Positions 2,414 to 58,557 of a DNA stretch of 64,000 bases are shown here, piece by piece (positions within the stretch are counted from its first letter, which is position 1; every line of letters begins with the position of its first letter). This DNA is from a virus. Under the pieces are notes generated by a model. It did not search any database, had not been told where the DNA came from, and was given only the letters and a program-made list of their open reading frames with translations. Location: positions 64,001-128,000 of the IMG/VR virus record IMGVR_UViG_3300045988_119718. One strand, written 5' to 3'. A program made the position numbers and the translations under genes.

Positions 2414-3454
2414 CTATTTCCCTTCTTCATAAATATTATATTTAACTGGTGAACCAGCAGCCTTTTTATGACCACCACCACCATAGGATCTTGCGATCTC
2501 ACTTGCATCTACATTTTCTTTAGCTGTATAGAAGGATACTGTATAACCATCGGAATCTTTGTTCTTTCTAATGAGAGAAACAAAGTCAAAATCATTTATA
2601 TGATTTCCGAATACGGTAGAATTTCCGCTACCATACATATAACAGCAGTTATAAACGTTACCGTTAAAGCTAAAAGTAGTAGGTTTAGCAAACGCTCTAT
2701 ATCTAATTTCATTTACAATCACCGATTCATCATAAAATTCTTTACCAAATTTAAGGGCTTTATCTAAATAATCCCTATTGCAAAGCAATTCAGTTACCAT
2801 ATCAGAACCAATGTATAACTGATTGGAACGCAGAGTAAAGTTATAAATAGACAAGCAATCTTCTCTATCTTTAATACTAAGGAATCCAAATCTATCGTAT
2901 CTATCAATCAATCCAATAGCTTTTTCATTGACTGAATCTGCAAATGTAGCACCATAAGAATTTACACAATCTTTAAAGATATTGTAGCAAAGTCCTACAC
3001 CTGCATTCTTAACACAGATATGCATTCCCAAAGATCTATCATAAATCTTATTCTTATAGAATTTATAATTAGAATCGATTTCTCTCAATGTAGTGAGATG
3101 ATGGTCAATAATGAAAGCACTATTTGCATTTTTCAAAATAGCTTTAATATCATTCATCTTAAGAGAAAGGTCTACTACAATTACATTGCTACCTTTCTTG
3201 ATATACGAAGAAAAATCAAACTGTCTTTCATAGTTATATGGTACGCATGTAATAGAAATTTTAGTATTACCAATAAACTCTTTAATAGCTTTAATTACAA
3301 TCTGAGCAGAAAAGATTCCGTCTGCATCTACATGATGAATGAGGACTAACGGTTTAGTAGAGCCTTCTTGATATTCTTTAAAAATACCAAATTCTAAAGC
3401 ACTATCATGAGACTTGAAATAACGGTCTTTTTCTGCTTTAATAACGATTGCCAT
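2414..3454 (-). CDS. DHH/DHHA1-family phosphoesterase (NrnA/RecJ-like nanoRNase / pAp phosphatase-like)
   Basis: Motifs HHVDADGIFS (DxD), IIDHH (DHH) and C-terminal GGGHKKAAG (the DHHA1 GGGH motif). Confidence 0.75.
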   Translation of the reverse strand: MAIVIKAEKDRYFKSHDSALEFGIFKEYQEGSTKPLVLIHHVDADGIFSAQIVIKAIKEFIGNTKISITCVPYNYERQFDFSSYIKKGSNVIVVDLSLKMNDIKAILKNANSAFIIDHHLTTLREIDSNYKFYKNKIYDRSLGMHICVKNAGVGLCYNIFKDCVNSYGATFADSVNEKAIGLIDRYDRFGFLSIKDREDCLSIYNFTLRSNQLYIGSDMVTELLCNRDYLDKALKFGKEFYDESVIVNEIRYRAFAKPTTFSFNGNVYNCCYMYGSGNSTVFGNHINDFDFVSLIRKNKDSDGYTVSFYTAKENVDASEIARSYGGGGHKKAAGSPVKYNIYEEGK

Positions 3455-3682: not shown

Positions 3683-5314
3683 TTAATGCTTAGGGAAAAC
3701 TACAGGATTGTAGATTCCATCGAAACCTCTAATCGTAGAGTTGAGGTCAGTTACATTTTTGTACAGCTGGCACTCTGGGTTGTACTTGCGAATAGATTTG
3801 AATACTTCACCAACTCTATTCTTTTCATCTTCATCTGAATCCGAGTTATTAACAACCCAGTTTACAATATCAGACAAGAAGATAGCTTTCTTAGCATCGT
3901 AAACAACCTTATCAAAGTCAGTGGATGGAGTTGGGATAGAAACTGGTTTGGGTTCTTCCTTTACCACTTCTTTTACCTCTGGTTCTACAACCTCCTCTTC
4001 TTCTACTGCTGGAGTGCTATTAGCATGAGTTGGGTAATCGATCTTGATTACAGTTGAAGAATTGTCAACAGGAACAAACTCTCTATTGATCAGGTTGTAT
4101 TTTCTAGCGAGATCAATGAACTCATTACTTGCACCTACAGCATTGAAAGCATTGCTGTTGATGTCATGTTTCCACCAATCAATGTATCTTTCATAAGACG
4201 GAATCAAATCAATCAGCCGATTATCGAAAATGTATTTGGCAATGATATTTTTATCAAATACCAAAACATCTTTTACTTCTTTACCGTTATGGCACAGGGT
4301 ATGCTTATCCGGCAAATACCCCATATCTTTAACACCCTCAATGAAATCTTTCAAAGAGAATGTTGCGTCTTTACGGTAGAAGAGAGCATAATACGTTTTC
4401 AGCAACCGCTTCAAACCAACAGGATTGAAAATCAACAGATTCTTTGTCTGAGTTGCACAGACTACGCTGTCGTTCACATTTTCATTGAAGAAGTAATCAA
4501 TGCCCATGTACAGCGGGAAGTACCAAATCAGATTTAACAGTACTCTGCGATAATCATCCACTTTATGCACTGGGGTGCTTACTGTTTTGTGCCCTCCGAC
4601 ATATGGATTGATATCAGTAACGATGAAATTTTCCAAATCACGATTCATACTAGAAGATTTGAGATAATAACTATTAACGTCATTCTCTTCTTCTTTGTCG
4701 AATCTAATAGCTGGTGGTTCTTCTGTTTTGGTAGAAACCACTAAAGTGATATTAGGAGCAGTATTATTAAAGGTTACACCACCCATATTTTTTGCTTTAG
4801 CATCATTAAGCAGCAGCTGTACACCGGCTCTGGTGAAAACATAGACACCAGAGATTTCTTTTGCCAGATATTCATCGACCAGTTGTGGCAGATTCTGCTT
4901 GATGAGATTTTTGATATCTCCATTGTAGTAGACTTTAGAAATTTTGAAGATTTCTTTTACGTCATCTACAGAGAAGATATCTCTGATATCATTGGTGGCA
5001 GGCTTGAAGAATCTGTTTTCTTTCTTCTTGAAATCCATGATAGACTTCTCGATATACTTGTGAATAATTCCTCTCAAAATACCGAGTCTGCCCTGTGCAG
5101 CAGCCTGTACATCATACACTCTGATGAAGCCAGAAACAAGTTCTCTGGTATTTGCTTCATCCAGATTGTAAATAACGTCAGAGAATTTCTCGATGTTTTC
5201 AACCAATGGTTTGATATCGAGATTTGCTTCTTTGCAAATAGCGTCATGAACCGAAACAAAAACCGGTACAATGTATACTTCTTTTGTAACTTTTTCAAAC
5301 AGTTCTTTACTCAT
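3683..5314 (-). CDS. hypothetical protein (543 aa) with an acidic EEEVVEPEVKEVVKEEPKP linker
   Basis: Long ORF followed by a bidirectional terminator hairpin at 3626-3658; no motif recognised. Confidence 0.5.
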   Translation of the reverse strand: MSKELFEKVTKEVYIVPVFVSVHDAICKEANLDIKPLVENIEKFSDVIYNLDEANTRELVSGFIRVYDVQAAAQGRLGILRGIIHKYIEKSIMDFKKKENRFFKPATNDIRDIFSVDDVKEIFKISKVYYNGDIKNLIKQNLPQLVDEYLAKEISGVYVFTRAGVQLLLNDAKAKNMGGVTFNNTAPNITLVVSTKTEEPPAIRFDKEEENDVNSYYLKSSSMNRDLENFIVTDINPYVGGHKTVSTPVHKVDDYRRVLLNLIWYFPLYMGIDYFFNENVNDSVVCATQTKNLLIFNPVGLKRLLKTYYALFYRKDATFSLKDFIEGVKDMGYLPDKHTLCHNGKEVKDVLVFDKNIIAKYIFDNRLIDLIPSYERYIDWWKHDINSNAFNAVGASNEFIDLARKYNLINREFVPVDNSSTVIKIDYPTHANSTPAVEEEEVVEPEVKEVVKEEPKPVSIPTPSTDFDKVVYDAKKAIFLSDIVNWVVNNSDSDEDEKNRVGEVFKSIRKYNPECQLYKNVTDLNSTIRGFDGIYNPVVFPKH

Positions 5315-6834: not shown

Positions 6835-7010
6835 TTATAAATCAAATCCAGCAATATCTACACCCTGCAATAAAGAAGTATAATTAGAATCAGTTCTACG
6901 AATATCTTCAATTTCTTTAGCAATATTTTCAGAAGTATATCTAATCAAGGTTCTATTATATTCAGGTAATAAAGTAGAAACTGCTAATTGAGCTGGCTTC
7001 ATTTCGCCTA
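6835..7010 (-). CDS. type II topoisomerase large (GyrB-like / T4 gp39+gp60-like) subunit, exon 2
   Basis: Encodes GEMKPAQLAVSTLLPEYNRTLIRYT...LLQGVDIAGFDL, which matches the GyrB C-terminus ...[24 protein letters not shown]... when joined to exon 1. Followed by terminator 6807-6830. Confidence 0.7.
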
Positions 7011-7328
7011 CGTGTTCATCTGTTATCACTAACAGCACTGACTATTTCTTCACTAGGACTAAACGCTAATTAACTGTCCATCATAGTGCTAACCATTTCC
7101 AAATACGTATCAATAGTATTTGTACTCTCCGACAAAGGAGATAGTCGATACAGGTTTAGGTTTAAGAAATTCTATATTTGCTTTCCTCCATTTTAATATT
7201 AAAATACTTAGAAAGCAAACCCTACTTCCCACGAGACATTCTTATTTACAATAAGACGACCCTCGTTAGCTACAAGATTCTGTAACCCCGATGATGAATC
7301 GGAAAGATTAGTTAGGCCTCGTTCACTA
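7011..7328 (-). ncRNA. group I self-splicing intron (about 318 nt, no ORF) interrupting the topoisomerase gene
   Basis: Exon 1 ends ...AAAGGCU (U at the 5' splice site) and the intron ends in G before exon 2 UAGGCGAAAUG. Internal guide GGCC near the intron 5' end pairs with exon GGCU. P7-like strands GACUA ... UAGUC and a GGGAA P4-like element are present. GC content is higher than the flanks. Boundaries are uncertain by 1-3 nt because of the repeated g/ta/g. Confidence 0.6.
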
Positions 7329-9501
7329 AGCCTTTATAGCGTTGTACATTAGGAGGTGTAAAACTATCAAATGCTTTCATTAATTGATACAGTGATACTT
7401 TCTGGTCATTGAGAATATATCCATTAATGTCAGAATTGACAATGTATTTAGAAATTCTTTCATGACAATCTTTAAGCATATTCTGATTAAATACTGCCAT
7501 TTGAATTTCATCACCAACTAATCCATCAAGTACTAAAATATTATTCTTATTATCTACTTGAATGTACTTATTTACTTTAGCTACAACTTTCTTAATTTGA
7601 TTATACTTGTACCCATTAAGAATCATGCTATATACCAGCTCTAACAGATTTGGCTCAATAGCATAGTTCTGAGAGATAATACTCATATCAATCAAATAGT
7701 TGATATTATTGCAGAGAAGATCCACTACTTGAGTATCACTCATTTTCTTACCGGTAGAACTCTTAACGGTATTATACTTAATGAATCTTCTATATACATA
7801 CTGTACATATTCTCTCTTATCTGTAAAATAAGTAAGACTACCATTCTTATTCTTAATAGAATACAATGGTGGTACAGCCGCATATACTCTACCAGCTTCT
7901 ACAAGTGGTCTATAATAAATCAAAAACATTTTTAACAGTAAACTTCTGATATGCAAGCCATCTACATCTGCATCTCCTAAGAATATAATCTTATCGAATT
8001 TGCATTTATTAGGATCACATCTTCTACCTTCTCCACAATCAAGAATTGTATAAATAGCTTTGCATTCTTCATTCTTAAAGAAGTCTGCTTTAGAACAAGT
8101 CATAGCATTCTTTACTTTACCTCTAAGAGGCATTAAACCCTGCTTAGTAGGATCACATGCTTCACGACAAGTACTCATAGCAGAATCCCCTTCTACCAGA
8201 ATCAATTCAAGATTAGTTCTTCCAGAAGGTTTTTGATATTTAGAAGGTAATCCAGTCAATGTAGATACATTGCTTTTAAGCATTACTATCTTTTCTTTAT
8301 TTGTTTTTAAACGCAGATTGCCAACAGATTTGAAGAAATTACATAGACGCTGTAATTCATTTGAATGTGATTTGCACCATTGGTCTAGACCTACAGTCAC
8401 AAGTTCTTTAATAAATGGAATTGAATCCGTATTACTAAAGATTTCTTTAGCCTGTCCTGAAAACATTGGTTCAATATGCATAATTGCTACCGCTGCTTTA
8501 AGACCAGCTTTAATATCATTATTGATGATTGTCAAATTAGTTTTCTTATTAAGAAAAATCTTATTCATATAATTTCTAAAATAAGTACATAATGCATCAA
8601 TAAATGCTTGTGAGTGTGCAGAGTCTGCACTAATAGTCGGACACATATTAGCAAATGAATAAACAACTTCTTGTTCATCAATACCATTAGCATCATACGT
8701 GAAGGCAATATCAGCTTTCATTCTATCATTACCACCACTAAATGTAATTGGTGGAATAAGTGCTTGATATTTGTCTTTCAGTAAAAAGGTTGAGATACCA
8801 ATCTCGTTTACATACCTTTCATTAAAAACATTTTTACCACTTCTAATACCATGAAAATTAATTACAGCTCCAATTTTCATTAATGGCAATAGAGTACTAA
8901 TAAGAGCATTTACATCTTCACAAGAAGTTGTAATAGTTCCCATAATAGTTGTATCAGGAATAAATGAAACTCTAGTACCCTGCCAGTTATCTGTATTAGG
9001 GCATTTCTTTGGTTCTTTTAATATTGGTTTACCTTCTCTAAATTCAATATATCTACCTTCTGGTTTACCAGTAGGAGAGTACTGAGCACATAAATAAGAT
9101 ACACCAATAAATACTGAAGATAATGCGTTAGTAGCTTTACTACCTACACCATGTCTACCTGAACTGAATTCACCTTTCTTCTTTTTATAGTTAGATGATG
9201 TATGTTCAGAAGAAAAGATTCTTATCATATCTTTAAATGGTAAACCTCTACCATTATCCACACATGTAAATTCTTTACTATCTTCATTATAGGTAATCCA
9301 AATTTCTGTAGCTGGAGATTCCTGTTTCTCTACTTCATCCATAGAGTTCTGTAGAATCTCTCGTATCATATTGATATGACCACGATTACCTAGATAGCCA
9401 ATAAACTGAGTTGGAGTTCTTCTAACTGCATCAGAGAAATTACTTAAAGTTTTAATTTCATTGCCATATTCATTAATGGCTTTTTTAAAGTCAATACTCA
9501 A
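7329..9501 (-). CDS. type II topoisomerase large (GyrB-like) subunit, exon 1 (ATPase + Toprim)
   Basis: GHKL ATPase motifs ILQNSMDE and HGVGSKATNALSS. Toprim LILVEGDSAM. FLGDADVDGLHIRSLLL resembles GyrB PDADVDGSHIRTLLL. Ends ...VQRYKGL followed by VNEA-stop, which is read from the intron. Confidence 0.8.
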
Positions 9502-15160: not shown

Positions 15161-16750
15161 TTAGAATTCGATAGAATCTACACAGTCGTATTTCTTATTC
15201 TTAAGAATCTTAACAAGAGCTTTAAATGGATCAAGCTCATTATTTACTACCATATTCACCATGCTACTAGAGAAACCAGATAACAAAGTTACTCCATTCT
15301 CATTAGTTCTCAAAGGAACATTCTGATCAGCGTAAATAGAAGTATTCCAGAAAATCAGTTTAGGCATCTTATAACCATGTTTTTCATATTTTTCAATGAG
15401 GTATTCAAACAAAGATTGATCTGGTGTAGCACCACATGCATAATCAAATTGCATATCAGATACGATAACAATTCTTTCTGGCATATCTTCTTGTGCAATC
15501 TTATTCTTAATAGCAGTATTAAGAATCAGATTGAATACTTTTTCGATATTAGTATTACCACAATCGTCATATTCACCCAGAATCTTAAGCTTAGCACAAA
15601 GATGATCAGTAGAAGTAGTCAAATCTACAATCTTTGGTTTGCTAGAGAATGTAATGAATTTGTTTTTGAATTCACCAGTATTAAACTGAGACAAGAAGAT
15701 ACAAATAGAATCCCCAATATCCATCGAAGTGAGAGAAGAACTATGTGAAATACAGTTTACCATAGAATAAGAACCATCTCTTACTACGAGAGTATTAGAC
15801 AGCTTCGCTGGAGTTGGCAGATTCTTCCACAGTTGTTCAAGAGAATCATCTTTAGTAACATTAAACCCGTGAGACATATCGCAATGTTCTCTGTATTTAT
15901 GAATGATATCATACATAAACAAAGTACCAGCATTAATAGTAGTTTTACCTTCTTTAAGTTTAGAAAGATAATCTTTTCTACGCTCAGTATCATGCCGTAA
16001 AAATGCATCTTTATACTTCAAGTTGGCATAGCTAGGAACACGTTCATATTCAATTTCTTTCCAGTTATTAGCACTAGTGTCTACTTCTACCACTTTACTA
16101 TGCTTTCTCAAAATAGAAAGCATTTTTCGATACTGTTTACTAGAGAGTTTAAATTCATTAGCAATCCAATTAGCAATCAATTTAGTTTTCTTAGAAGAAG
16201 TATTAATAGAAGGCATCCATTTACCAAGTAATGAGATATGGCAATCCTCATCCAAACTTGTTGCTTTAGCACATTTCTTAATATCTTCATTAAGCTGCTT
16301 AGTAATAATAAACTTAATGCAATCTGTAATTTCTTTAGACGTATCTTTCAATGCATACCAAATATAGATTAAGTCATCCCATCTACCAAAATCATTTTGG
16401 ATATTGCATTTCTCAATAATTTCAAGAGCTACTTTTGGATATTTCATAGCAAAATCTACGAATAAAACTCTAAATGAGTTTCTTTCACCAGCACCATTCT
16501 TAATGTCTCTCAGATAAAGCAACCATCTAATAGCCAAGTTTTTATCTTCACTATATGCTTTAGTAAAAGTATTTTCAAACTTATAAGGATTATTTCTCAA
16601 AGATGGAATATTATAATTCAAATCCAAAAGATATTCTCCAGTTGAAGCATAAGTGGTAGCACCATTTGCAGTAGTGGTTACTTCATTTAAAGTTTCTTTG
16701 TCCATCAGTTTCATAATATCAGTCATGATTCTCCTCCTAAATAAATACAT
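15161..16750 (-). CDS. vWA-domain protein (DUF2828-like)
   Basis: MIDAS-like LVVRDGSYSM (DxSxS) and IVIVSDMQFD; about 530 aa, as expected for DUF2828. Confidence 0.5.
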   Translation of the reverse strand: MYLFRRRIMTDIMKLMDKETLNEVTTTANGATTYASTGEYLLDLNYNIPSLRNNPYKFENTFTKAYSEDKNLAIRWLLYLRDIKNGAGERNSFRVLFVDFAMKYPKVALEIIEKCNIQNDFGRWDDLIYIWYALKDTSKEITDCIKFIITKQLNEDIKKCAKATSLDEDCHISLLGKWMPSINTSSKKTKLIANWIANEFKLSSKQYRKMLSILRKHSKVVEVDTSANNWKEIEYERVPSYANLKYKDAFLRHDTERRKDYLSKLKEGKTTINAGTLFMYDIIHKYREHCDMSHGFNVTKDDSLEQLWKNLPTPAKLSNTLVVRDGSYSMVNCISHSSSLTSMDIGDSICIFLSQFNTGEFKNKFITFSSKPKIVDLTTSTDHLCAKLKILGEYDDCGNTNIEKVFNLILNTAIKNKIAQEDMPERIVIVSDMQFDYACGATPDQSLFEYLIEKYEKHGYKMPKLIFWNTSIYADQNVPLRTNENGVTLLSGFSSSMVNMVVNNELDPFKALVKILKNKKYDCVDSIEF

Positions 16751-16950
16751 TACTTATTACGTCTATTCCATTTTAACTTTTCAAAATTTTTAAATAGGTT
16801 TATAGAGTCTGTAAACTTAGGTACAGACTCTAAACCACATTTATCGCATTTGAAAGAGTATAATTTATTGGTTTCATCATAAATGATTTTTAAAAAAGAA
16901 TGCTTATTGCATATAGGACATTTTATATTCTTTAACTTAATCTCTATCAT
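16750..16950 (-). CDS. small zinc-ribbon protein (66 aa)
   Basis: CPICNK...CDKCG; ATGA overlap with the helicase stop. Confidence 0.5.
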   Translation of the reverse strand: MIEIKLKNIKCPICNKHSFLKIIYDETNKLYSFKCDKCGLESVPKFTDSINLFKNFEKLKWNRRNK

Positions 16951-18632
16951 GATGTAACCCTTTCTATTACTACTCTCATTTTGGGTACGTCAGAAATAAA
17001 TCCTTCAAATTCATCTAAATCCGCAATAGGTTCGCTTTCCAACATAGCGTTCTTAGCAAACCGATTATTATCATTAGTAAAGATACTAGCATTTTCATCA
17101 TATACTAAACTATACTTAGCAGCTGGTTGAAAACAATTTACATCTTCTACTAATTTAATAGTATTGCCTTGTACAAATGGCTGATAGAATCTAGTGGCTC
17201 CTGCATCAATATCAACTCTATAACGGTGCTTTGTAATCTTAATACCTAAATATTTTACTCCATCTTTTTCACATGGAATAATAAGAATAGTAGCATCCAG
17301 ATTTTCATCAATAAGAGAAGATTCACCTATATTAGCTCTACCTACACCATTCATCATTTTATCAAATCTATCATTTGTTCTAGCTTCATCTACAGTTCTA
17401 GCAGCTTCTCTATTAAGCTGAGATGCTGTAATGACTGGTATTTTGTATTCTACAGCAAAGTTTTTAAACTCGTTAATTACATTACCAAGTCTAAATCTTT
17501 CATCCATAGTATTACCAAATACTGGTCTAATACGCTTTATATAATCCTGAAATACGGCTATAGTTTCAAATCCTTTATCAGCATATTCCTCTACTAATGA
17601 ATATAGATAACTAGTATCTACAGAATTAATAGGAGCATATCTTAAGTGAATTGCAATATCACCTGGTTCAGAACATCTTAATCCAGATTTTTCCATATTA
17701 GCCATAACTTGTTTTGCTGTTGGCCCATTTGGGTCTTTAAGATTTTCAGTAAATCCTGCAATATTATACATGGACTGAAATTCTTCATCAGGCTGGTTTT
17801 CCATTGAAAGATAGATAATACAAGGTTTCTTTGTTTTATCTTTACATTCATACCCTCTATTGTATAATGCTACTTGGTAAGCTAAGTTCTTAAGTAAAGT
17901 AGATTTACCCTCACCAGCTAGACCAAACATAGAATATACTCTACCGCCTTCAAATCCACCAGCTAGAATTTTATTAAATGCTTGCATCCCAGTTTTAAGA
18001 ATATGAGATGGGCTTCTAATAGTAGTCAAAATCTGATCAATAGCATTACCAGGGTCACCTAAGTTAATACTATTTAAATCATTAGTACTTGCTTGATTTC
18101 TTCTAATCTTATTATTAGCATTCTTAATAATTTCTTTAAGATTATTAGCATTAGTTTGAATAGTACCTGGGTCAGATGTATCTAAAGAAATACATGCAGA
18201 CTTCAGTTCACTAGAGATATCAATCATATCCGCTGTATTCAAATAATCACTAATAACGTTTTGTGCTATCCAAGCTGCATCATTAGTATTTAATTCTGCA
18301 AAGTCATCAGGATTAATGGTTGGATATTTATTTCCAACTACACCAATAGCATCTTTGACATAGAATTCTCTTTTTGTAAGTTTCTTATCCAGCTTAGCAT
18401 GAAGAATATCCAAGCAAAAATTATATCTAGCTAATAGATCTGGTTCATTTGCATATAATCCTGGGTTATTTCGTAATAGTAAAGAACGAAGATTAACTAA
18501 ATTAGAAATTTGAATAGACTGATTTTCAGATAGTGCATATTGGCACATCCAATTCAAAGTTTTTAAATCTAATTTCATACTAGATTTATCTTCATCATCT
18601 TTACGTATTTTTTTATAGCTTCTTCCACTCAT
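16947..18632 (-). CDS. replicative DNA helicase, DnaB family (T4 gp41-like)
   Basis: Walker A GLAGEGKSTLL and H4 motif ITASQLNREA, in a RecA-like C-terminal domain. Confidence 0.75.
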   Translation of the reverse strand: MSGRSYKKIRKDDEDKSSMKLDLKTLNWMCQYALSENQSIQISNLVNLRSLLLRNNPGLYANEPDLLARYNFCLDILHAKLDKKLTKREFYVKDAIGVVGNKYPTINPDDFAELNTNDAAWIAQNVISDYLNTADMIDISSELKSACISLDTSDPGTIQTNANNLKEIIKNANNKIRRNQASTNDLNSINLGDPGNAIDQILTTIRSPSHILKTGMQAFNKILAGGFEGGRVYSMFGLAGEGKSTLLKNLAYQVALYNRGYECKDKTKKPCIIYLSMENQPDEEFQSMYNIAGFTENLKDPNGPTAKQVMANMEKSGLRCSEPGDIAIHLRYAPINSVDTSYLYSLVEEYADKGFETIAVFQDYIKRIRPVFGNTMDERFRLGNVINEFKNFAVEYKIPVITASQLNREAARTVDEARTNDRFDKMMNGVGRANIGESSLIDENLDATILIIPCEKDGVKYLGIKITKHRYRVDIDAGATRFYQPFVQGNTIKLVEDVNCFQPAAKYSLVYDENASIFTNDNNRFAKNAMLESEPIADLDEFEGFISDVPKMRVVIERVTS

Positions 18633-21520: not shown

Positions 21521-24500
21521 ATGGATTATGAAACCTTGATAAATCTAAAGTTCAAACGAACTGAAGGTAGTGTAGATTTAACCAAGTCTAAATGGTCTTC
21601 AGTAGTAATAAATGAAGCTAACTATAGAGAAGAAACGGTGGACTATAGTTCAGCTGGAAGATTTGATAACGGAGAAGCCGCATATTTAGACGGTGAATTT
21701 TCGGTTATTAATAAGATTACTGGCAAGAACCTAAGCCTAGATTTAAATGCGGACGAATTTACGTTTGCATTATGGGTAAACTGTGATTTTACTAAGATGA
21801 ATATGAAGCAGTATTTACTCTGCGGTAATAATCAAATTAAAAACTCTAATAACTCTATATACCTACAACCAGACAAATTTAAAACTAATATGTCTATAGT
21901 ATTAGTTTCATCTACTGGTACTAAAATAGAAATTCCATTTATTGAAAATAGTGGATTAATATTAACTGGTAGATGGGTATGGCTAAGATTAACTAAATCT
22001 AATGATAATAAAATTAATTTTTATATAAATAATGAATTAATAGGAACTTCTAGTGTTATAACTTCTTCTTTTAAATTAATATTTAATAATAATGAAACCT
22101 GCATAGGTAAAGGCTATGATGCTGATTATCTGTATTACCCACATTTTAAAGGATATATAGATGATTTTGTATTAGTAAAAGGATTATCATATAATAAAGC
22201 TAAAGTACCTAGTACATATTTCTTAAATGAAATAGATCCATCTTTATTAGAAGATGCAGCTAATGTATGGGATGAAAAAGAAAGAGAATTTTCACAGTAT
22301 GATTCTATTACTAATGCAATAGAATGGAAAAGGTTTAATACTAAAGAAGAAATAGATAAAAGAGAACAAGCTTTAATTCCATATATGCTTACTCCTATAT
22401 GGAAACAATGCGATATTAATCTTCCTACTTGGATTAAACCTGTATTAACCAATCCTTATAGAATCAATGATAAAGTAATTTATAATATAAACCAAATTTA
22501 TAATAATACTATAGACTTTAATACAGAATATCCTGATGCAGCTAATGGGTGGAAACTCATTCATAATACCTTAGATGATATTAAAGAATGGGAAAAACCT
22601 AATAAATACTATAATTATATGGATAAAGTGTTATATAATAAGAGAGTCTATCAATCTCAAGTAAATTATAATACAGAGTTACCAGCTGCATGGATGGTAT
22701 TAACGGCTCTTACTAATTCAGAAAAAGAAGAATTAGATGATGATATCTATAAATGGAATAAAGAAATAGAATATGCATTTAAAGATAGGGTAAAATATAA
22801 TAACAAATATTATATTTCTATTATGAATAATAATTTAGGGTATATACCAGGAGATACTACATATTGGAAAGAAGTAGGTGGTGGTACCAGTTTTATTACA
22901 GATTGGGTTAAGCCTACTACTTACAAAAATGGAGATATAGTTTCTTATAATGGTAAATATTATCATTCTAATATCGATTATAATATCTTAACTCCAGGTA
23001 ATCATCATGTAGAATGGACTGAAATAACTTATTGGGAACAACCAAAGTATAAAAATGTATATGTAGATGGTGATAAAGTATTCTATAAAGGAAAGACTTA
23101 TATTTGTAATTTAGCTAAAGATAGTTCAGGAAATTACAAATACCATGAATACTCTATAGTAGCACCAGATAAATATGTAAATAAAAAGTATTATAAAGCA
23201 TTATATCATATAATCCCAGAAGGTGGGAATTACTATGATCCAAGAGATGTAGAATCAATATTTTGGCAGGAAATACCTAAAACTCAAATAACAGATTACT
23301 CATTATATAAGGAATGGGTTAGAGGTAATGTATATAATACTGGTGATTTAGTAGTAGCTACTGATTATGACTGGAAACAAACTTTTATATCTGAAGGGTT
23401 CTTCCAGAATAAGCAGTTTACTATAGATCGAGATGATACCACTATTAAGATTAAACTCTATGATGCTTGGGATAATCATTATTTGAGTAATGATAAAGAT
23501 AGAATCTATTTTAAGAAAAACTATCTAGAAGCATTTAATCTAATTGAAGTTGATGGATATATCTTAATGATAAATAATAAATTTATTAAATGGACTGATA
23601 TAGATATAATTAGATCAGATAGATTTGTAACTTTATCTATTAAAAAACCATCTTCATTTGTAGTTAAAGATGTGGTATTAATTAGATTACCATGTAAAGT
23701 TATTTATTCTGAAACTGGATATATGCCAGACAATGGTATTAAACTGTTTGGTTTTGATACTAATGGCAATTTTGGTAGTGATATAAATATCTATGCTGTA
23801 AATAATAGACTTAGAGAATTAGTTTATACTGATACTAAGTTTGATAATATATTTATAGATACAAACTTAGATCATAAAATTACTAGGTCTAATCTATTCG
23901 TATTTGATGAAGATGGTAAATTCATAACTAGAGATAATTATACTATCTCTTCTGCTAATATATTTACCTATATACCTATTGATACTGATAAAAAGTATAC
24001 TTTATATTGTATATGGGATGATACAGAGAACTCTAATGAAGATAATTTAGCTTTAATACCTAATGATATTAGAGTTAGACAATATCTTAGAAATTATAAT
24101 ACCAATACAAATATGGATAATGATTATCCTGTAGATTTGCAGCAATTAAATAAAGAGTTTGATTATAGTGTAGTACGGCATACTAGTGATAAACGTTATG
24201 ATGATAATATCTCTAATTCTATGAATGGTATATTTAATTATAATAAGAATAAGTTTGATTCTGTATATGAAGAAGTAAGACCAGTAAACATAGAGGAATA
24301 TTCTGAGGCTTATATGAACTCTTTAAAGAGAAATATAAGGATAACCATAGATGAAACTAATTTGCCTCAATTACTTCATTCTTATATAGTAGAAGGTACT
24401 GACTTAATAGAACTTTGTGATGAGAATAAAAATAAATATATTGGTAAAACAGTAATAATGAAATTAAGACAATATCTTTCGGTTACTCTTACTAAAAGTA

Positions 24501-26119
24501 ATATAGATTCTTATGTAGGTAAAGTAGCTATAGATGGTTCTGATAATATCATTATTACAGAAGATAATAAGAATAATCTTATTGGTAAAACAGTTAAGTT
24601 TAATACTAGTGGTTTATTTATTGATAATACTGTAAATAATTTTGATAGTATTATAATGAGTAGAGATATTTATAATAAGTATGATTATAAAAACAATACT
24701 TATGTAATGCTATTTAAACGTGGTATGCTGCCAGAATGGTATAATAAAATTCAATATACCAATGATAAATTCTATTTCACTGATATACCTAGAGCTGATT
24801 ATAGGACTATTTATATGGAAGAGTATGAAAAGCAATATATCCAAGTAATGGGTAAAGAAGGGGAATTTTACAATGGTAAAACTACTAGATCGTTTAAAGT
24901 AGAAGATGGGACTGATTTTGAAACTGGTTATGAAATATCAGTAATTGCAGATTATGGCTATACAGCTGGTAAGGTTAAAGAATCCCCTGGTATTGTAACT
25001 AGTGATTCTTGGATTAGAGCTTATGAACCAGAAATAAACTTCTATACTGTAACTGTAGTTACCTCTCCTCATCAACATATTAAAGCCACTATTATCAGCA
25101 ATAAAGAAGGATATGATTTATCTACTTTGGAAAAATTATCATATACTGATACTACATTTAGAGTTCCTTACAATACTACAGTTAATTTTGAATTAACTGC
25201 TGATAAAGGATATACAGCTGGAGAATTAAATTATAACTCTATTGTTGTAACTAAAGATACTACTATTAAAGCTGCAAGAGAAGCAGACACTAATGATTAT
25301 ACTATTAGAACAGCTAATTTGTATAAAGATATTATCGATATAAGTATAGAATATAAAGATAAAGAATATAAAGATGTTACTGTTAATGCTAAATATGCTG
25401 ATACATTTAAGGTCATTATAAAAACTCTTAACGATAGATATGTATACAATGGAATAGAATATAATGAAGATACTATGCACAAAAATGATGATGGTTCATA
25501 TACTTTATTAGAAGATACTGTGATATCTGTAAAACAACCATTAGAAAACGCTCATAGATTCTATATCTACGATAACTCTGATATGGATATAACCGCTAAA
25601 AATTATGGCATTGATAATAAACTGATATCTTCTTGCAGTATAAATGAAGATATGAAAATTATTAATAGAGATATAATTAAAGTCAATGTTAAGCCAAATA
25701 GTAATTATAATGCGGCTATTCCATTATTAATAGAAGGTACTCCTAAAGCATTAGTAAAGCCTGATAACGAAAATAACCAAGCTGAATTAAATTACACTAT
25801 TACTGCTGGAGAAACAGATATTAGTATTAGAGCATCTGATACTAAGATTAGATACTTTACTATTAATATTCCTAATAAAGATAATCAGACTATTACGATT
25901 AAATATGTAAACCCAGTTGATAGTGGTACTTATACTACTATTAAGTCCGTAAGTGTACCATATGGTACTATATATACAATTACAGTAACTCCGAATGAAG
26001 GATATAATGCTGGTACAGCTAATCCTTCTAGTGGTACAGTAACCAGTACTGTAAATATCAATGTAACAGATGCTACTAAGATTAGATATAAAGTTTACCT
26101 TAATGCTGGCAATGGTTAA
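21521..26119 (+). CDS. giant virion adhesin / fibre protein (1532 aa) with LamG/ConA-like, CBM5/12-like repeats and C-terminal Ig-like modules
   Basis: RBS AGGAG. LamG-like segment (aa ~40-225) ends ...GYIDDFVLVKGLS. Five tandem ~45-aa repeats W.KP..Y..GD.V.YNGK.Y......P....W (aa ~292-530). C-terminal repeated modules end in GYTAG / GYNAG. Confidence 0.7.
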   Translation: MDYETLINLKFKRTEGSVDLTKSKWSSVVINEANYREETVDYSSAGRFDNGEAAYLDGEFSVINKITGKNLSLDLNADEFTFALWVNCDFTKMNMKQYLLCGNNQIKNSNNSIYLQPDKFKTNMSIVLVSSTGTKIEIPFIENSGLILTGRWVWLRLTKSNDNKINFYINNELIGTSSVITSSFKLIFNNNETCIGKGYDADYLYYPHFKGYIDDFVLVKGLSYNKAKVPSTYFLNEIDPSLLEDAANVWDEKEREFSQYDSITNAIEWKRFNTKEEIDKREQALIPYMLTPIWKQCDINLPTWIKPVLTNPYRINDKVIYNINQIYNNTIDFNTEYPDAANGWKLIHNTLDDIKEWEKPNKYYNYMDKVLYNKRVYQSQVNYNTELPAAWMVLTALTNSEKEELDDDIYKWNKEIEYAFKDRVKYNNKYYISIMNNNLGYIPGDTTYWKEVGGGTSFITDWVKPTTYKNGDIVSYNGKYYHSNIDYNILTPGNHHVEWTEITYWEQPKYKNVYVDGDKVFYKGKTYICNLAKDSSGNYKYHEYSIVAPDKYVNKKYYKALYHIIPEGGNYYDPRDVESIFWQEIPKTQITDYSLYKEWVRGNVYNTGDLVVATDYDWKQTFISEGFFQNKQFTIDRDDTTIKIKLYDAWDNHYLSNDKDRIYFKKNYLEAFNLIEVDGYILMINNKFIKWTDIDIIRSDRFVTLSIKKPSSFVVKDVVLIRLPCKVIYSETGYMPDNGIKLFGFDTNGNFGSDINIYAVNNRLRELVYTDTKFDNIFIDTNLDHKITRSNLFVFDEDGKFITRDNYTISSANIFTYIPIDTDKKYTLYCIWDDTENSNEDNLALIPNDIRVRQYLRNYNTNTNMDNDYPVDLQQLNKEFDYSVVRHTSDKRYDDNISNSMNGIFNYNKNKFDSVYEEVRPVNIEEYSEAYMNSLKRNIRITIDETNLPQLLHSYIVEGTDLIELCDENKNKYIGKTVIMKLRQYLSVTLTKSNIDSYVGKVAIDGSDNIIITEDNKNNLIGKTVKFNTSGLFIDNTVNNFDSIIMSRDIYNKYDYKNNTYVMLFKRGMLPEWYNKIQYTNDKFYFTDIPRADYRTIYMEEYEKQYIQVMGKEGEFYNGKTTRSFKVEDGTDFETGYEISVIADYGYTAGKVKESPGIVTSDSWIRAYEPEINFYTVTVVTSPHQHIKATIISNKEGYDLSTLEKLSYTDTTFRVPYNTTVNFELTADKGYTAGELNYNSIVVTKDTTIKAAREADTNDYTIRTANLYKDIIDISIEYKDKEYKDVTVNAKYADTFKVIIKTLNDRYVYNGIEYNEDTMHKNDDGSYTLLEDTVISVKQPLENAHRFYIYDNSDMDITAKNYGIDNKLISSCSINEDMKIINRDIIKVNVKPNSNYNAAIPLLIEGTPKALVKPDNENNQAELNYTITAGETDISIRASDTKIRYFTINIPNKDNQTITIKYVNPVDSGTYTTIKSVSVPYGTIYTITVTPNEGYNAGTANPSSGTVTSTVNINVTDATKIRYKVYLNAGNG

Positions 26120-33849: not shown

Positions 33850-35838
33850 ATGGCTAAAAAAGATCTATATTATAATAATAATGAATCTACTAAACAAATT
33901 ATAACAGAAGTAGAATTAGATAACCATAATACTTCTGATAATGCTCATAAAGAAAAATTTGATAAATATACATTACATACTCCTACTGGAATATGGGATG
34001 CAGTATATCAATTAGGCCCAAATTATAGATTTACTGATCAATCTACTAAAGGATTTGCTAAGTTAGGATTATTTGCATCAGTATATGATACTAAAGACGT
34101 ATTTGAATATCAACCTTCTCAGTTTGGCACTTTATTAAATTTACCTACTACTATAAAAGATAGTAATTTTATTACAGTTACCCAGTTATGGTTTGACCAA
34201 TCTGGGGATTTATTTATTAGAACTGGTACTGTAAATAATCCTATTAATAAACTTCAATTTACTAAAGTAACTTTAATGACTGATGTATTTAATAAATATG
34301 GCAATGAATTCCCAGCTACTAATTTAGTTCCTGGTATGTTATTTTATAGGGCTGATGAAAATAAATTATATGTATATGTGCCTAGTGATAGTAACTCTAA
34401 CTGGAAGATGATTTATGATTTAAATAAAGATGCTAATATAGCAGATGGCTTGTCTCATGCTTGGTATAAATTAGACAATTCTACTAATGATACCAGTATA
34501 CCTAAACTAGCAGAGTCTGAAAACATGAATACGTATATTAAACCTGGTGTATACTCATGCATTTCTGGGCAGATAGCAGGTACTTTAGTAAATAAACCAT
34601 CTGGGGCAAATAGTAACTTTAGATTAATTGTAGAAGAAAATACTCCTGGATATGGAGTACAAAAAGTATTTACTAATAATCCTTGTAAAATTTTTATAAG
34701 AGGCTTTAATACTACTAATAATAAAACTACATTTACAGATTGGAAAACTTTAGTAAATAGCACAGATACAATTTTAAATGCAGAAACAGCAACTAGAGAT
34801 AGTGCTGGTAATGTAATAAAAGATACTTATGTTAAGAAATCTGGAGATATCATGACTGGTGGTATTATCTTTAGTAAATCTGCCACTGGTAATAACTATG
34901 TAGGCCCTGGTGAAGGGGATGTAAGTGATGCTGTAGTTGCTAATCAATCTAATTTAGCAATTAATGGATGGCAGACAGTTGGTGTTAGAAAATCTAGCAG
35001 TGACCCATATACAATTAGTATGAATACTAGAACTGGTGATATCCATACTAAAGGTAGCATCAAAGGAGATAGCACCGCTACATTTACTGGTGCTGTAACT
35101 GCACCTACATTTAATGGTCATGCATCTGAAGCTAGTAAAGTATTAGCAACCAATATTTCTCAAGATACAGTATTGATGGAATCTATCCAAACTGATGGGG
35201 ATGGCTCCAGAATTGTCATAACAGGCGTTGGAGACCATCATGATGGTTGTCATTTAAAATTTCAATTAAACAACTCCGATCCTGGTAATATTGGTAGTCA
35301 AGCAAGCTTCTACCTTGAGCAGTACCATGATAATTATCATACATTAGAAAGTAGGGCTACTCTATTAGATTATGCACATAATACGTCTTTCCCAGGGGTA
35401 TTAACCGCAGCTAGAGTAGTAAATGCTCAGTATAATGACTATGCAGAATTCTTTGAACGTGGCGAAGAAACTGAAGCTGGAGATATTATAGCTTTAGATT
35501 TATCATCTGATGAAGAAAGATATGTTAAAGCTACTCCAAAGAATAGAGTTATAGTAGGAATTCACTCTGATGAATATGCCCATATCATTGGTGGTGAAAA
35601 AGATAAAACCTTAGAAGAGAACTTAAAGAATTTCATTCCTGTTGCATTAGCAGGTCGTGTACATGTTAAAGTATCTGGTGTAGTATATAAAGGGGATAGA
35701 ATTGTTATTAGTAATGGTATGCCTGGTATTGGTATAGCTCTTACTAATAATTCTACTTCTAATAAACAAGTAATTGGTATAGCATTAGAGAATAAATATA
35801 ATCTTGGTATAGGTAAGATTAGATTATTGCTGAAGTGA
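33850..35838 (+). CDS. tail fibre protein (662 aa)
   Basis: RBS AAGGAGGA. The C-terminal ~110 aa (VVNAQYNDYAEFFERGEETEAGDIIALDL...HSDEYAHIIGG...IPVALAGRVHVKV) is shared with ORF 61345-62418. Confidence 0.6.
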   Translation: MAKKDLYYNNNESTKQIITEVELDNHNTSDNAHKEKFDKYTLHTPTGIWDAVYQLGPNYRFTDQSTKGFAKLGLFASVYDTKDVFEYQPSQFGTLLNLPTTIKDSNFITVTQLWFDQSGDLFIRTGTVNNPINKLQFTKVTLMTDVFNKYGNEFPATNLVPGMLFYRADENKLYVYVPSDSNSNWKMIYDLNKDANIADGLSHAWYKLDNSTNDTSIPKLAESENMNTYIKPGVYSCISGQIAGTLVNKPSGANSNFRLIVEENTPGYGVQKVFTNNPCKIFIRGFNTTNNKTTFTDWKTLVNSTDTILNAETATRDSAGNVIKDTYVKKSGDIMTGGIIFSKSATGNNYVGPGEGDVSDAVVANQSNLAINGWQTVGVRKSSSDPYTISMNTRTGDIHTKGSIKGDSTATFTGAVTAPTFNGHASEASKVLATNISQDTVLMESIQTDGDGSRIVITGVGDHHDGCHLKFQLNNSDPGNIGSQASFYLEQYHDNYHTLESRATLLDYAHNTSFPGVLTAARVVNAQYNDYAEFFERGEETEAGDIIALDLSSDEERYVKATPKNRVIVGIHSDEYAHIIGGEKDKTLEENLKNFIPVALAGRVHVKVSGVVYKGDRIVISNGMPGIGIALTNNSTSNKQVIGIALENKYNLGIGKIRLLLK

Positions 35839-40940: not shown

Positions 40941-43220
40941 TTATCTTTCACCTTTAAAATTTTTAAAATTCATGTTTTTAGCTATTTGCTTCTTAGCTAT
41001 TTCCTCTGGGTCTTCTCCAAAGTTAGTAAACACTGAGTCTGGTATTTTAAACTTGTTAGCTTTATTAGTGGATATTAATTGTTCCTCTGGAATCTGAGAA
41101 TATTCAGCATATGCTTTTCTTACTGCTTTATTTTGAATCATATCCATAAGCATTTGTTCTTCTTGATTTCTTTGTTTTTTCATAAACTCAGAGAACATAG
41201 TACCCATACCAATCTTTAAAGTTTTTAAACACTCATCTACTTCTTTTCTAGTACTGTTTTCATCTTCTATAGGAATTTTAAACTCTTCTACTATTTCAGT
41301 GTACTTTTGTTCTAGGTCTTTACCTATATTATCATCAACAGAATCTTCTGTTTTAATTACACCTTTATCAATATTAAAGTTTTCTTTTAAATACTTACCT
41401 TCATACCAAACATATAATGCCATTAAATATGAGAATACTAAATCATCGTGAGAATTATCAGAGTGTTCTACTTTACCATTTTTCTTAACTACCATTTTAG
41501 ATAGTTCATCATACATAGTAGGAGAAGGCATTTTATCTTTATGCCTTTCCATTCTTTCTCTAAGTATTTCTATAAGTAAATCACGAGAACCTTTAGATGA
41601 ATCTAATCCATATACTTTAGTTTTTCTCTTTACTCTAATTGGTCTTCCTAATTCATCTGAAGTTTCTTCCATTACTCTTTCTTTGATTTCATAATAAAGA
41701 TTATCTTTAATTCCACCTGGTTCTTTTAATTTAGCAATAAGAGATGCTCCAAATCCTCCATTACGCTCGATATTTACTACCGCATTAGGCATCATTGCTT
41801 TAACCATCCAGATTAAAGTTCTTGCTAAATCAGGTATAGTCATATAGTTGCATTTTAAACCAGCGATAAATTGTGTAGTTTTAGAATCTATTACAGATAT
41901 TGCAGTATAGTCTCGTCTATATCCACCAGATACATCGACACCTATTATAGGAGGATTTATAGGTAACCCTGTAATAGATAATGGTATAGTATTATATATT
42001 TTGAATGGGTATTTATTTAATATTAATACTTCTCTTATAGGCTCATGTATCATACCTCTAAGAGTTTCTAAATCATCTTGACTAAATGGAGAATTTTCTG
42101 GAGTATCTATCCATTCGAGTAAAATTTCTCGACGTATATCTACCATCTTCCACATCATGTTTTTACATTGATCATAGAACCATTTTTCTCCCAATCCAAG
42201 TTGTTTATAAGAATACTTTATATATACAAATATGGAATTCATATTATTATTTATGATATCCATAATTTGTTCGTAAGTTAAGTCATACCATCGTTCATTA
42301 AATGGTGTAGCATTTTGTATCATATCATACGCAAATTGACCTTCAAAAGTAGACAATCTGCCTGGGGTAGTAGTTATAGTAATACCATATGGTACATTAG
42401 CTCTTTTAGCATTAATAAATGCTTTATTTAATGCTGGCATAGAGTTTACATAGATAGTAGAGTTAAATGCCGTGAATGCCCATTCGTCAGCCCACCACAT
42501 AGTAATGGTTTGACCTCTTAATAGGTTAGCTGCTGCTGTTTCATTTCTAGCACCAGGAACAGTTCTAATGATATTATGGTTTACTGGATGCTGTATAGTC
42601 TGTACAGTAGAAGGTAATTTCTTCTTTTTACCATTTATCACAGAGAACTCTTGAGATAATTGTAACCATGATGGTAATAAATCTCTAACAGCTTTAAATG
42701 ATTCCAAGTTTCGCTTAGCATCTTGATTCTGCTTATTCATAAATGTAATATTAGAATTAGCAGAAGCAAAGTTATATACATAAAGATATCTTACTATCGC
42801 TGCCATGGTTTTACCAACCTGACGAGGCATTTCAAAAAATAAATTCATATTATACATAGAGCAAAAATTAAAGGCTAAGTTGCCTCTATTAAGCTCATAT
42901 CTAACACCTCTAGGGTTACCATTAGCAGTTACTCTAACTACTTCTCTTAAGAAATACCAATAGTTTCTCTGTACTTCTCTATATATCTTCATTTTCATTT
43001 CCAAAGATAAGCTAGGATCATATGGATCTACACCAGCTAAATCTGGGTCAAATAAAGACAGCATAAATTTATTATTCTTAATACCAATACTCTTCAAATA
43101 ATAATGCATATTAATAAATGACTTATTAGCTGTAGACATTTGGTAATATATCTTTTGGGGAGCATATTGTATTTGCCTAGGTTGTTGCTGAGCAATTAAA
43201 TTAGATATTAAATCCGCCAA
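40941..43220 (-). CDS. terL: terminase large subunit (T4 gp17-like ATPase + nuclease)
   Basis: Walker A MPRQVGKT (cf. gp17 SRQLGKT), Walker B MWWADEWAF, and C-terminal RNaseH-like nuclease region IIGVDVSGGYRRDYTAISVID. Confidence 0.7.
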   Translation of the reverse strand: MADLISNLIAQQQPRQIQYAPQKIYYQMSTANKSFINMHYYLKSIGIKNNKFMLSLFDPDLAGVDPYDPSLSLEMKMKIYREVQRNYWYFLREVVRVTANGNPRGVRYELNRGNLAFNFCSMYNMNLFFEMPRQVGKTMAAIVRYLYVYNFASANSNITFMNKQNQDAKRNLESFKAVRDLLPSWLQLSQEFSVINGKKKKLPSTVQTIQHPVNHNIIRTVPGARNETAAANLLRGQTITMWWADEWAFTAFNSTIYVNSMPALNKAFINAKRANVPYGITITTTPGRLSTFEGQFAYDMIQNATPFNERWYDLTYEQIMDIINNNMNSIFVYIKYSYKQLGLGEKWFYDQCKNMMWKMVDIRREILLEWIDTPENSPFSQDDLETLRGMIHEPIREVLILNKYPFKIYNTIPLSITGLPINPPIIGVDVSGGYRRDYTAISVIDSKTTQFIAGLKCNYMTIPDLARTLIWMVKAMMPNAVVNIERNGGFGASLIAKLKEPGGIKDNLYYEIKERVMEETSDELGRPIRVKRKTKVYGLDSSKGSRDLLIEILRERMERHKDKMPSPTMYDELSKMVVKKNGKVEHSDNSHDDLVFSYLMALYVWYEGKYLKENFNIDKGVIKTEDSVDDNIGKDLEQKYTEIVEEFKIPIEDENSTRKEVDECLKTLKIGMGTMFSEFMKKQRNQEEQMLMDMIQNKAVRKAYAEYSQIPEEQLISTNKANKFKIPDSVFTNFGEDPEEIAKKQIAKNMNFKNFKGER

Positions 43221-43261
43221 TATTGTTTCCTCCTTTCCTCTAAATTAATAAAATGTTTTAA

Positions 43262-43294
43262 ATAAAAAAAAAGAGAGGTCTAAACCTCTCTTTA
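43262..43294 (-). terminator. stem-loop terminator AAAGAGAGGTCTAAACCTCTCTTT (copy 1)
   Basis: Hairpin with the T-run on the minus strand; near-identical copy at 43686-43714. Confidence 0.6.
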
Positions 43295-43339
43295 TAAACG
43301 GCAGTTAATTATTGCCGTAAAAATAATTGAACACTTTTA

Positions 43340-43645
43340 CTAATTCTTTTTAGCACAAGCACTCTTAATAATGTTGAATGCTTCATGTGCTTTAGCACTA
43401 GATACATGATCTCTCTTACAGAGGAATTCACCATCATTAATAGCGTTGAATTCGATAGTATCATGAAACAGATTAACCGAAATCCAATATCCGTTACTAT
43501 TGATACTAAAGAATACTTCGCATATACCAAAATTAACAAAGAGAATTTTAGTACCCTCTCTACTAATTACTTGTTTGAGCAAGATAATCGTTTTATCCGC
43601 ACTGCTCAAATTATTTGGCGTTGCTTTCGGTAGTGTTTCTTTCAT
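43340..43645 (-). CDS. hypothetical protein (101 aa)
   Basis: ORF flanked by the two near-identical hairpins. Confidence 0.45.
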   Translation of the reverse strand: MKETLPKATPNNLSSADKTIILLKQVISREGTKILFVNFGICEVFFSINSNGYWISVNLFHDTIEFNAINDGEFLCKRDHVSSAKAHEAFNIIKSACAKKN

Positions 43646-43685
43646 AGTATTTTCCTCCTTCTAATAACATAGTAAATTATAGCAA

Positions 43686-43714
43686 AAAAAGAGAGATCTA
43701 AACCTCTCTTTAGA
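43686..43714 (-). terminator. stem-loop terminator AAAGAGAGATCTAAACCTCTCTTT (copy 2)
   Basis: Differs at one position from copy 1. Confidence 0.6.
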
Positions 43715-43718
43715 ATTG

Positions 43719-44042: not shown

Positions 44043-44110
44043 AATGATTTCCTCCTTTGGAAAACTATATACATTATCATAGTTATAATATATAATACAA
44101 AAAATAAAAT

Positions 44111-44140
44111 ATTACACTACTCCATATGGAGTAGTGTAAT
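44111..44140 (-). terminator. stem-loop ATTACACTACTCCATATGGAGTAGTGTAAT
   Basis: 12-bp perfect stem between genes. Confidence 0.5.
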
Positions 44141-44155
44141 ATTTATTATAACTTA

Positions 44156-44515: not shown

Positions 44516-44605
44516 AACAAAAACTTTTGAATAACTGATTACTGTAGTGTTATTAAAACTTTGATATCTATACCTACCTATACAGATAGGTATAGAGCAG
44601 CATTA

Positions 44606-57699: not shown

Positions 57700-57719
57700 T
57701 ACAACTACCTTCTTTCTTT

Positions 57720-58105: not shown

Positions 58106-58123
58106 AATATGATTCCTTTCTTT

Positions 58124-58544: not shown

Positions 58545-58557
58545 AATAAATCTCCTA

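Follow-up and report, generated by a model that had tools for sequence, protein, structure and literature searches.

The insert at positions 7011–7328 on the minus strand of the window is very probably an ORF-less, IA2-like group I intron lying within a gyrB-like topoisomerase gene of a jumbo phage. The window is the whole stretch of DNA that was analysed, that is 64,000 nucleotides of the IMG/VR record IMGVR_UViG_3300045988_119718. The element is precisely inserted, has a group I fold, belongs to a family of related elements and carries a guide adapted to its own exon. From this structure, the family membership and the matching of guide and exon, we infer that the RNA would be catalytic and spliced in vivo.

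The window stems from a jumbo phage, to which its context genes point (15161–18632, 21521–26119, 33850–35838 and 49938–52115). The products encoded in this context include a DnaB-like helicase and a family-B DNA polymerase, both divergent, together with a DUF2828/DUF7788 protein, a T4 gp36-like tail-fibre domain and a protein of 1532 aa that contains a CBM_5_12 module. No tRNA genes were found in the window. Two stretches of more than 1 kb each (43220–44606 and 57673–58756) are free of ORFs of at least 120 aa on both strands, and neither the family model described below nor Rfam yielded anything significant in them.

Organization of the interrupted gyrB-like gene

The gene, its exons, the intron and the terminator all lie on the minus strand (Table 1). 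As already noted in the preliminary description and confirmed from the ORF list, a 729-aa ORF (7312–9501) ends with ...NVQRYKGL followed by VNEA and a stop codon. Pfam assigns HATPase_c, DNA_gyraseB and Toprim domains to exon 1, whose 3' end reads ...CGC UAU AAA GGC U. The frame resumes downstream of the insert as GEMKPAQLAVSTLLPEYNRTLIRYT..., with its first base at 7008 and its stop codon at 6835–6837; the preliminary description had rightly seen in it the continuation of GyrB, and its figure of 58 aa differs only trivially from the 57 aa counted here.

Scanning IMG/VR with exon 1 identified L001, a contig of 231 kb. Its protein shares 97% amino acid identity with that of the window, and its gyrB gene is uninterrupted, reading ...CGCTATAAAGGCTTAGGCGAAATGAAG... 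within a 782-aa ORF. Removal of 7011–7328 from the window gene leaves 2349 nt, which is the length of the L001 gene, with 95.6% nucleotide identity and zero indels, and restores not only a continuous homologous gene but also the Pfam C-terminal domain: the spliced C-terminus matches DNA_gyraseB_C with 41.4 bits across the junction (cut-off 29.8), versus 18.7 bits for exon 2 alone. A repeated TA leaves three possible boundaries for the insert (7009–7326, 7010–7327 and 7011–7328). The last was taken because it is the sole choice in which the 5' exon ends with U and the insert with G, and these are the coordinates originally proposed for the 318-nt insert. The surroundings of the insertion were also compared between the window and L001 for a co-conversion tract, with no clear pattern (the nearest differences are at −26 and +19), and a megablast search of the window gyrB gene against GenBank phages gave no match.

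The GC content of the insert is 36.5%, versus 31.4% and 29.9% for the two exons and 30.2% for the window, in line with the earlier remark that it is GC-richer than its flanks. Equally, the statement that it holds no homing-endonuclease ORF stands, since no ORF of more than 44 aa lies fully inside it on either strand and no endonuclease was found. The terminator downstream of exon 2 is strong and is also conserved in L001. None was found between the exons, and this arrangement supports a single transcript.

Table 1. Features of the gyrB-like gene and of its predicted group I intron, listed from 5' to 3' in window coordinates.
Feature	Position	Strand	Basis
Exon 1, GyrB-like type IIA topoisomerase subunit	7329..9501	(-)	ORF list, Pfam, collinear with intronless L001 gene
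Predicted ORF-less group I intron of 318 nt, phase 1 (Leu codon split U↓UA)	7011..7328	(-)	Absent from L001, family model, structure map
P1: exon AGGCU (7333–7329) with guide GGCCU (7318–7314), U·G wobble at splice site, loop UAGUGAACGA	7314..7333	(-)	Sequence; guide–exon covariation
P3 5' strand (AACUA..UUUCC), pairs with 7089–7100	7301..7313	(-)	RNAalifold, partner-swap test, MFE
Hairpin A (CCGAU-ucauc-AUCGG), family-specific, peripheral	7288..7302	(-)	Covariation
Hairpin B (GGUUACAG-aauc-UUGUAGCU), family-specific, closed by invariant GGU/GCU	7268..7287	(-)	Covariation
J3/4 (AA), after hairpin B	7266–7267	(-)	
P4 (CGAGG/UCUCG) and P5 (UCUUAUU-gua-AAUAAGA)	7232..7265	(-)	RNAalifold, covariation
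P6 domain: closing GGG/CCU, extensions AGGGUUU/AAACCU, GCUUUC/GGAAAGC, AUUUUAAUAUUAAAAU	7152..7230	(-)	RNAalifold, MFE
P7 5' strand GACUAU, helix with guanosine-binding site; J6/7 (GUAUC) just before	7141..7146	(-)	
P7.1 (CUCC-uuuguc-GGAG)	7127..7140	(-)	3'-domain alignment, family model
P7.2 (CAAAUAC/GUAUUUG), conserved 9-nt loop UAUUGAUAC	7100..7122	(-)	Covariation, family model
P3 3' strand (GGAAA-UGGUUAG)	7089..7100	(-)	RNAalifold, partner-swap test
P8 (CACUA...UAGUG, inner GGAC/GUCC)	7051..7088	(-)	Alignment, family model, MFE
J8/7 (AAGAA) and P7 3' strand (AUAGUC), core element AAGAAAUAGUC	7040..7050	(-)	
P9 (CUGUUA-guga-UAACAG), tail AUGAACAC and terminal guanosine 7011	7011..7035	(-)	
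Exon 2, UA GGC GAA AUG ..., (L)GEMKPAQ...GFDL and stop codon, C-terminal GyrB motif	6835..7010	(-)	
Intrinsic terminator, 10-bp stem hairpin and T-run, directly 3' of exon 2 and the gyrB stop codon	6806..6831	(-)	

Family model and Rfam searches

The 3' domains of 80 family members, from which the window was excluded, were aligned and annotated for P7, P7.1, P7.2, P8 and P9 (alignment A3), and a covariance model (R1) was built from this alignment. Applied to the window, R1 recognizes one site, 7014–7155 on the minus strand, with 102.8 bits and an E-value of 6.5e-21; every modelled helix is formed in the window copy, with zero non-canonical modelled pairs. With the filters switched off, R1 found no further family member in the window, the next best site reaching 17.7 bits (E 0.07). 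This match, together with the intronless allele, the splice site, guide and core fold and the homologues inserted in the same codon, supports the original reading of the insert as a group I intron in a GyrB-like gene.

The same match effectively refutes the idea that another kind of intervening element is present, be it a group II intron, an intein, a bypass of the T4 gene-60 type or a small non-autonomous transposon, a reading whose probability we consider negligible. One of the possible boundaries starts with GTGAAC, which faintly resembles a group II 5' end, and there is a weak match to a plastid group II model; its 16.5 bits, the best score of this kind, compare with a threshold of 140 bits, and neither a domain V nor any significant group II match was found. 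In-frame stops rule out an intein, a stop codon being reached four codons into the insert. Bacteriophage T4, in which the homologous topoisomerase gene is split into genes 39 and 60, does use a translational bypass of 50 nt (ribosomal hopping) in gene 60, but the window gap, with its 318 nt, is far beyond a hop of about 50 nt, and the codons that border it, UUA and GUA, are mismatched. Terminal inverted repeats are not needed as an explanation.

The picture given by Rfam is different. A search of the whole window at gathering thresholds found nothing, and the search with Intron_gpI (RF00028) that the preliminary description had proposed as a check falls short of the curated threshold, yielding 17.6 bits in E-value mode versus 50 bits. 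The 5' half of that alignment is wrong, and it is sensible only at the J8/7–P7 element GAAGAAAUAGUC and at P9. When 16 loci were scanned at gathering thresholds, none of the 13 family members passed (13/13 failures), and the lone match, with 88.7 bits, is a different, canonical intron in locus L115. We read this failure as a shortcoming of the model rather than of the group I intron.

Secondary structure and covariation

Annotated helices of the 3' domain are well supported by A3, in which 91.5% of the cells form standard pairs as annotated versus 36–40% when the partners are slid, with covariation scores of 0.642 and about 0.12, respectively. P7.2 is 99.1% paired, with changes on both sides in 6 of its 7 pairs, whereas P7 is invariant across the family and hence uninformative for covariation. 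For the remainder of the molecule, nine ORF-less members were aligned with MAFFT, and this unfitted alignment was submitted to RNAalifold. The consensus, with compensatory changes in 29 of 49 pairs, recovered a long-range helix, two hairpins, P4/P5, the closing pairs of P6, P7.1, P7.2 and P9. In an alignment of 40 sequences, the window included, hairpins A and B, P4 and P5 are 95.1% paired versus 27–47% in the slid controls; the helix of hairpin B is 97.1% paired, four of its pairs being changed on both sides, and P4 reaches 98.8% pairing and shows A-U/G-C as well as G-C/U-A exchanges. Folding of the window intron as a single sequence gives P1, P3, both hairpins, P4/P5, P6, P8 and P9 in the minimum free energy (MFE) structure, with a z-score of −2.9.

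One strand of the long-range helix lies directly 3' of the guide and the other between P7.2 and P8, and the position of the 3' strand identifies the helix as P3. Since its register varies, with bulges, it was tested by swapping partners: cognate strands form duplexes of −7.94 kcal/mol versus −5.49 kcal/mol for non-cognate ones, and none of 5000 permutations was as good. A canonical P3 that uses the strand immediately 5' of J3/4 (GCUAAC/GUUAGC or UAGCU/GGUUA) can be formed in the window alone, and was rejected in favour of the covarying helix because it fails in the intron of the Lactococcus phage LW81 and in that of L115. In the resulting fold the 5' strand of P3 abuts the guide, P2 is absent, and hairpins A and B intervene between this strand and J3/4, which departs from the IA2 order in which J3/4 and P4 come directly after the 5' strand of P3.

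The loop of hairpin A (7293–7297) contains an AUC that is complementary to a GAU in the loop of P7.2, L7.2 (7107–7115). The two loops covary: AUC occurs with GAU in 51 cases and ACC with GGU in 23, that is in 74 of 77 automatically parsed members from several sub-branches, and the three exceptions proved on inspection to be parse errors. This pattern indicates a putative kissing tertiary contact between two hairpins that would emerge from the same end of P3.

The hallmarks expected of a group I intron are present. The splice site is a U·G wobble formed with an internal guide (AGGCU/GGCCU, covarying in three states), a guanosine (ωG) ends the intron at 7011, and the core, comprising the P3–P7 pseudoknot, P4–P6, P8, J8/7 and P7, is supported by the family model and by covariation. 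In all relatives inserted at the gyrB site the 3' end reads ..AYRYG↓UAGGNG. The elements by which the insert had first been recognized are all accounted for, the GGCC guide at 7314–7318, the P7 strands GACUA...UAGUC at 7141–7146 and 7040–7045 and GGGAA at 7226–7230, and the reported terminal U of the 5' exon and terminal G of the intron correspond to the U·G wobble with guide GGCCU and to G7011. The P7.1 and P7.2 characteristic of IA2 are found between P7 and the 3' strand of P3. The IA2 subgroup has been described with an extended P9 domain consisting of P9.0, P9.1 and P9.2 (PMC4227781); in its place the window copy has one P9 hairpin and a 9-nt tail. A search for a P10 helix that would join the P1 loop to the beginning of exon 2 gave nothing convincing; the sole complementarity overlaps the P1 guide, and we therefore make no claim for one. 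Points against the intron reading are thus the RF00028 score of 17.6 bits, the want of a convincing P10, the position of hairpins A and B, which is not that of the textbook P1–P2–P3 order, and an in-frame AUG (the M of GEM) that could in principle start a separate 55-aa peptide.

Insertion site and guide–exon matching

Introns homologous to that of the window are inserted at exactly the same position (AAA GGN U↓UA GGN GAA) in LW81, L115, L056, L034, L085, L102, L116, L018, L088, L058 and L068, where they split the Leu codon of KGLGE. In these gyrB-site introns the guide varies with the base at the third position of the Gly codon in the exon: exon GGC-U faces guide G-GCC in the window, GGG-U faces G-CCC in most relatives, and GGA-U faces G-UCC in L058. 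The matching of the guide to the exon wobble base supports P1 and shows that the individual copies are adapted to the genes in which they reside, and this adaptation argues for continued selection for splicing.

It also bears on the possibility that the gene is truly split, the intron being decayed and non-splicing and the products a truncated protein of 729–733 aa accompanied by a separate peptide of about 55 aa, or a protein without its tail. We regard this as quite improbable, even though the frame of exon 1 has its own stop codon four codons into the insert, an in-frame ATG at the start of exon 2 is preceded by AGG 6 nt upstream, and the LW81 homologue was treated as two CDSs by the GenBank annotators. 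A guide that fits the wobble base of the phage's own exon would decay without selection for splicing; moreover, all core helices are intact, with zero non-canonical pairs in the model alignment, both the frame and the length of exon 2 are exactly kept with respect to the intronless L001, and promoter-like sites in the insert, five versus 4.0 expected, are at chance level. The window may be metagenomic, and an artefact of assembly or a chimera inserted into an intact gene would be conceivable on that account. The use of the exact same codon by homologous introns in independent isolates and contigs, boundaries that follow the U/terminal-G rule and a guide that matches the local exon all oppose it, so that we give it hardly any credence.

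Several relatives at the same site carry an ORF of about 240–260 aa in P6, which in L116 encodes a GIY-YIG endonuclease, whereas the copies in the window, LW81, L115 and L056 are ORF-less; a mobile intron with its own endonuclease ORF is thus not what the window copy represents. In the sequences compared, the QRYKG-L↓GEM codon is documented as an apparent recurrent homing site, occupied by endonuclease-bearing and ORF-less versions of a single intron family in unrelated phages. The intron presumably reached this conserved site by homing, for which a GIY-YIG endonuclease, lost from the window copy or never present in it, was probably responsible. That this part of phage topoisomerase genes is a recurrent target had been suggested in the preliminary description and is corroborated by phage gyrB introns at several conserved motifs.

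Distribution of the family

When the intron was compared with GenBank phages by blastn, matches fell in DNA that carries no annotation in the Lactococcus 949-group, Enterococcus EF1/EF5, Staphylococcus Sextaecvirus and Lactobacillus SA-C12. For counts we used the core pattern GACTATC-N-AGTA-N-CTATTGRTACG, which occurs once in the window versus zero expected from shuffles of the window. This pattern was recovered in at least 119 stretches of IMG/VR and in 70 stretches of GTDB genomes, the latter mostly gut or rumen Bacillota bins or MAGs. Some of the bins among the GTDB loci (L127–L196) are labelled Parabacteroides, Methanobrevibacter or Treponema. Several GTDB contigs hold two to four copies of the family, which suggests that these contigs probably belong to phages or prophages and were binned together with their hosts. 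Related cores are found in Lak megaphages as well.

More than one intron may also occupy a single gene. In IMGVR_UViG_3300045594_000145 (L002), three family introns (cores at 2672, 3870 and 4341) lie in one metagenomic gyrB-like gene. Two of them interrupt conserved motifs, one following VVEG in the EGDSAG motif and the other inside TDA↓DPDG. The gyrB gene of L115 holds the canonical intron found by Rfam (3042–3273, 88.7 bits) and a family intron at KGL↓GE (about 3787–4100) which Rfam missed.

Comparison with known introns and split genes

The canonical IA2 group I introns of phages include those in T4 td and nrdB and in orf142 and nrdE of Staphylococcus phage Twort. In our comparison the type is represented by intron 1 of L115 and by the introns in the gyrB genes of Bacillus phage BpSp and of Yersinia phage phiR1-37. 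The family shares with them the layout of the 3' core (P7 GACUAU, P7.1, GAGUA, P7.2, GAAA, P3', P8, J8/7-P7' AAGAUAUAGUC and P9), P4 and its flanks (CUAACGNGG...CNCGUG), the U·G wobble at the splice site, the intron-terminal G and the insertion in conserved motifs of DNA-metabolism genes; the BpSp gyrB intron scores 51 bits on R1. The family differs in having no P2 between P1 and P3, in the two covarying hairpins between the P3 5' strand and J3/4, in the conserved 9-nt loop of P7.2 that covaries with the hairpin-A loop, and in a single P9 hairpin instead of P9.0/9.1/9.2. RF00028 also separates them, giving the canonical members 69.8–88.7 bits versus 17.6 bits for the window intron.

Among the closest counterparts are the introns of the Lactococcus 949-group (LW81, AM1–AM12 and P1048; genus Audreyjarvisvirus), which belong to the same RNA family, have the same insertion point and are likewise ORF-less. 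The intron of this group (in LW81, KY554777.1, at about 1324–1637) is about 83% identical to that of the window over a 74-nt core match, with a mean column identity of 78% in the two-sequence alignment. In this group, however, the host gene is only a distant relative, P6 and P8 differ or are shorter, and the guide is GCCC for an exon GGG. The LW81 gyrB gene was deposited as two 'subunit B' CDSs with no intron annotated, and those of AM1–AM12 and P1048 were likewise deposited as two 'subunit B' CDSs. For PhiL47, ORFs 110 and 111 are given as 'DNA gyrase' with no mention of an intron (PMC3888941).

Introns in gyrB have been predicted in AR9-like Staphylococcus jumbo phages (bioRxiv 10.1101/2020.12.14.422802). 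MarsHill, Madawaska and PALS_2 resemble the window in being jumbo phages whose gyrB contains an intron, annotated there as a joined CDS, but the site is near residue 514 in the Toprim region and not at the C-terminal KGLGE, and their R1 scores of 17.5–18.9 bits are no significant match. We therefore rejected an identity of the window intron with the known gyrB introns of MarsHill, PALS_2, BpSp and phiR1-37, which have a different site (about residue 514) and are of canonical or unrelated type. The literature searched yielded nothing specific on introns of phage gyrB genes at KGL↓GE, on the L7.2 motif or on 'P3.1/P3.2', no description of the hairpin A/B arrangement between the P3 5' strand and J3/4, and no published assay for any member of this intron subfamily.

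In T4, too, the C-terminal third of the same protein family is interrupted by an insertion related to selfish elements. The mechanism there is ribosomal hopping as opposed to RNA splicing, and the motif is different, the 39/60 break with its gene-60 bypass lying at the Toprim DxDxDG motif, upstream of KGLG. The preliminary statement that T4 splits the same region is thus correct as to the third of the protein, not as to the site. One of the L002 introns sits in that motif (TDA↓DPDG).

Proposed splicing reaction and implications

On the reading as a group I intron, both exons would be transcribed as a single RNA, and the intron would fold into its P3–P8/P4–P6 core, braced by the two extra hairpins and by the putative contact between hairpin A and L7.2. 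The guide GGCCU would pair with the exon end AGGCU, an exogenous guanosine would attack 3' of the wobble U, and the freed exon would then attack 3' of the terminal G at 7011. The predicted ligated junction is ...AAAGGCT↓TAGGCGAAATG, equally written CGCTATAAAGGCT↓TAGGCGAAATGAAG, and the product ...AAA GGC U↓UA GGC GAA AUG... would encode the full 782-aa protein, its QRYKGLGEM motif intact, whereas translation of the unspliced RNA would yield a product that lacks the final 57 residues.

It is possible, though we would put it no higher than a tentative proposal, that the family forms a structural subclass of its own within the IA introns, hitherto undescribed, abundant in gut Bacillota phages and in jumbo phages and set apart from textbook IA2 by its layout. 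The traits that might define it, likewise advanced with considerable reserve, are the absence of P2, the two hairpins between the P3 5' strand and J3/4, and a kissing contact, formed by the loop of the first hairpin (AUC or ACC) with an enlarged L7.2 (GAU or GGU), that clamps the P3–P7 region. If such a subclass exists, the Rfam model RF00028 would be blind to it, its introns would be systematically missed and their host genes would be annotated as split, as for gyrB in the Lactococcus 949-group.

More than half of the viral group I introns have been classed as IA2 (PMC11835236), and gut jumbo phages have been reported in which a genome can hold about 18 introns, with splicing confirmed by metatranscriptomes for 37 of 76 predicted introns (PMC12880540). 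Since a large family of phage introns escapes the Rfam model, survey counts that rely on this model would be underestimates, and the invisibility of the family to the model has led to split-gene annotations in deposited phage genomes. The occurrence of group I introns in DNA-metabolism genes of phages has long been established, so that the general picture is unchanged. For the annotation, the GyrB-like subunit of the window would be one 782-aa protein and not a truncated protein with an orphan peptide, and the same correction would apply to the deposited genomes of Lactococcus phage LW81 and its relatives.
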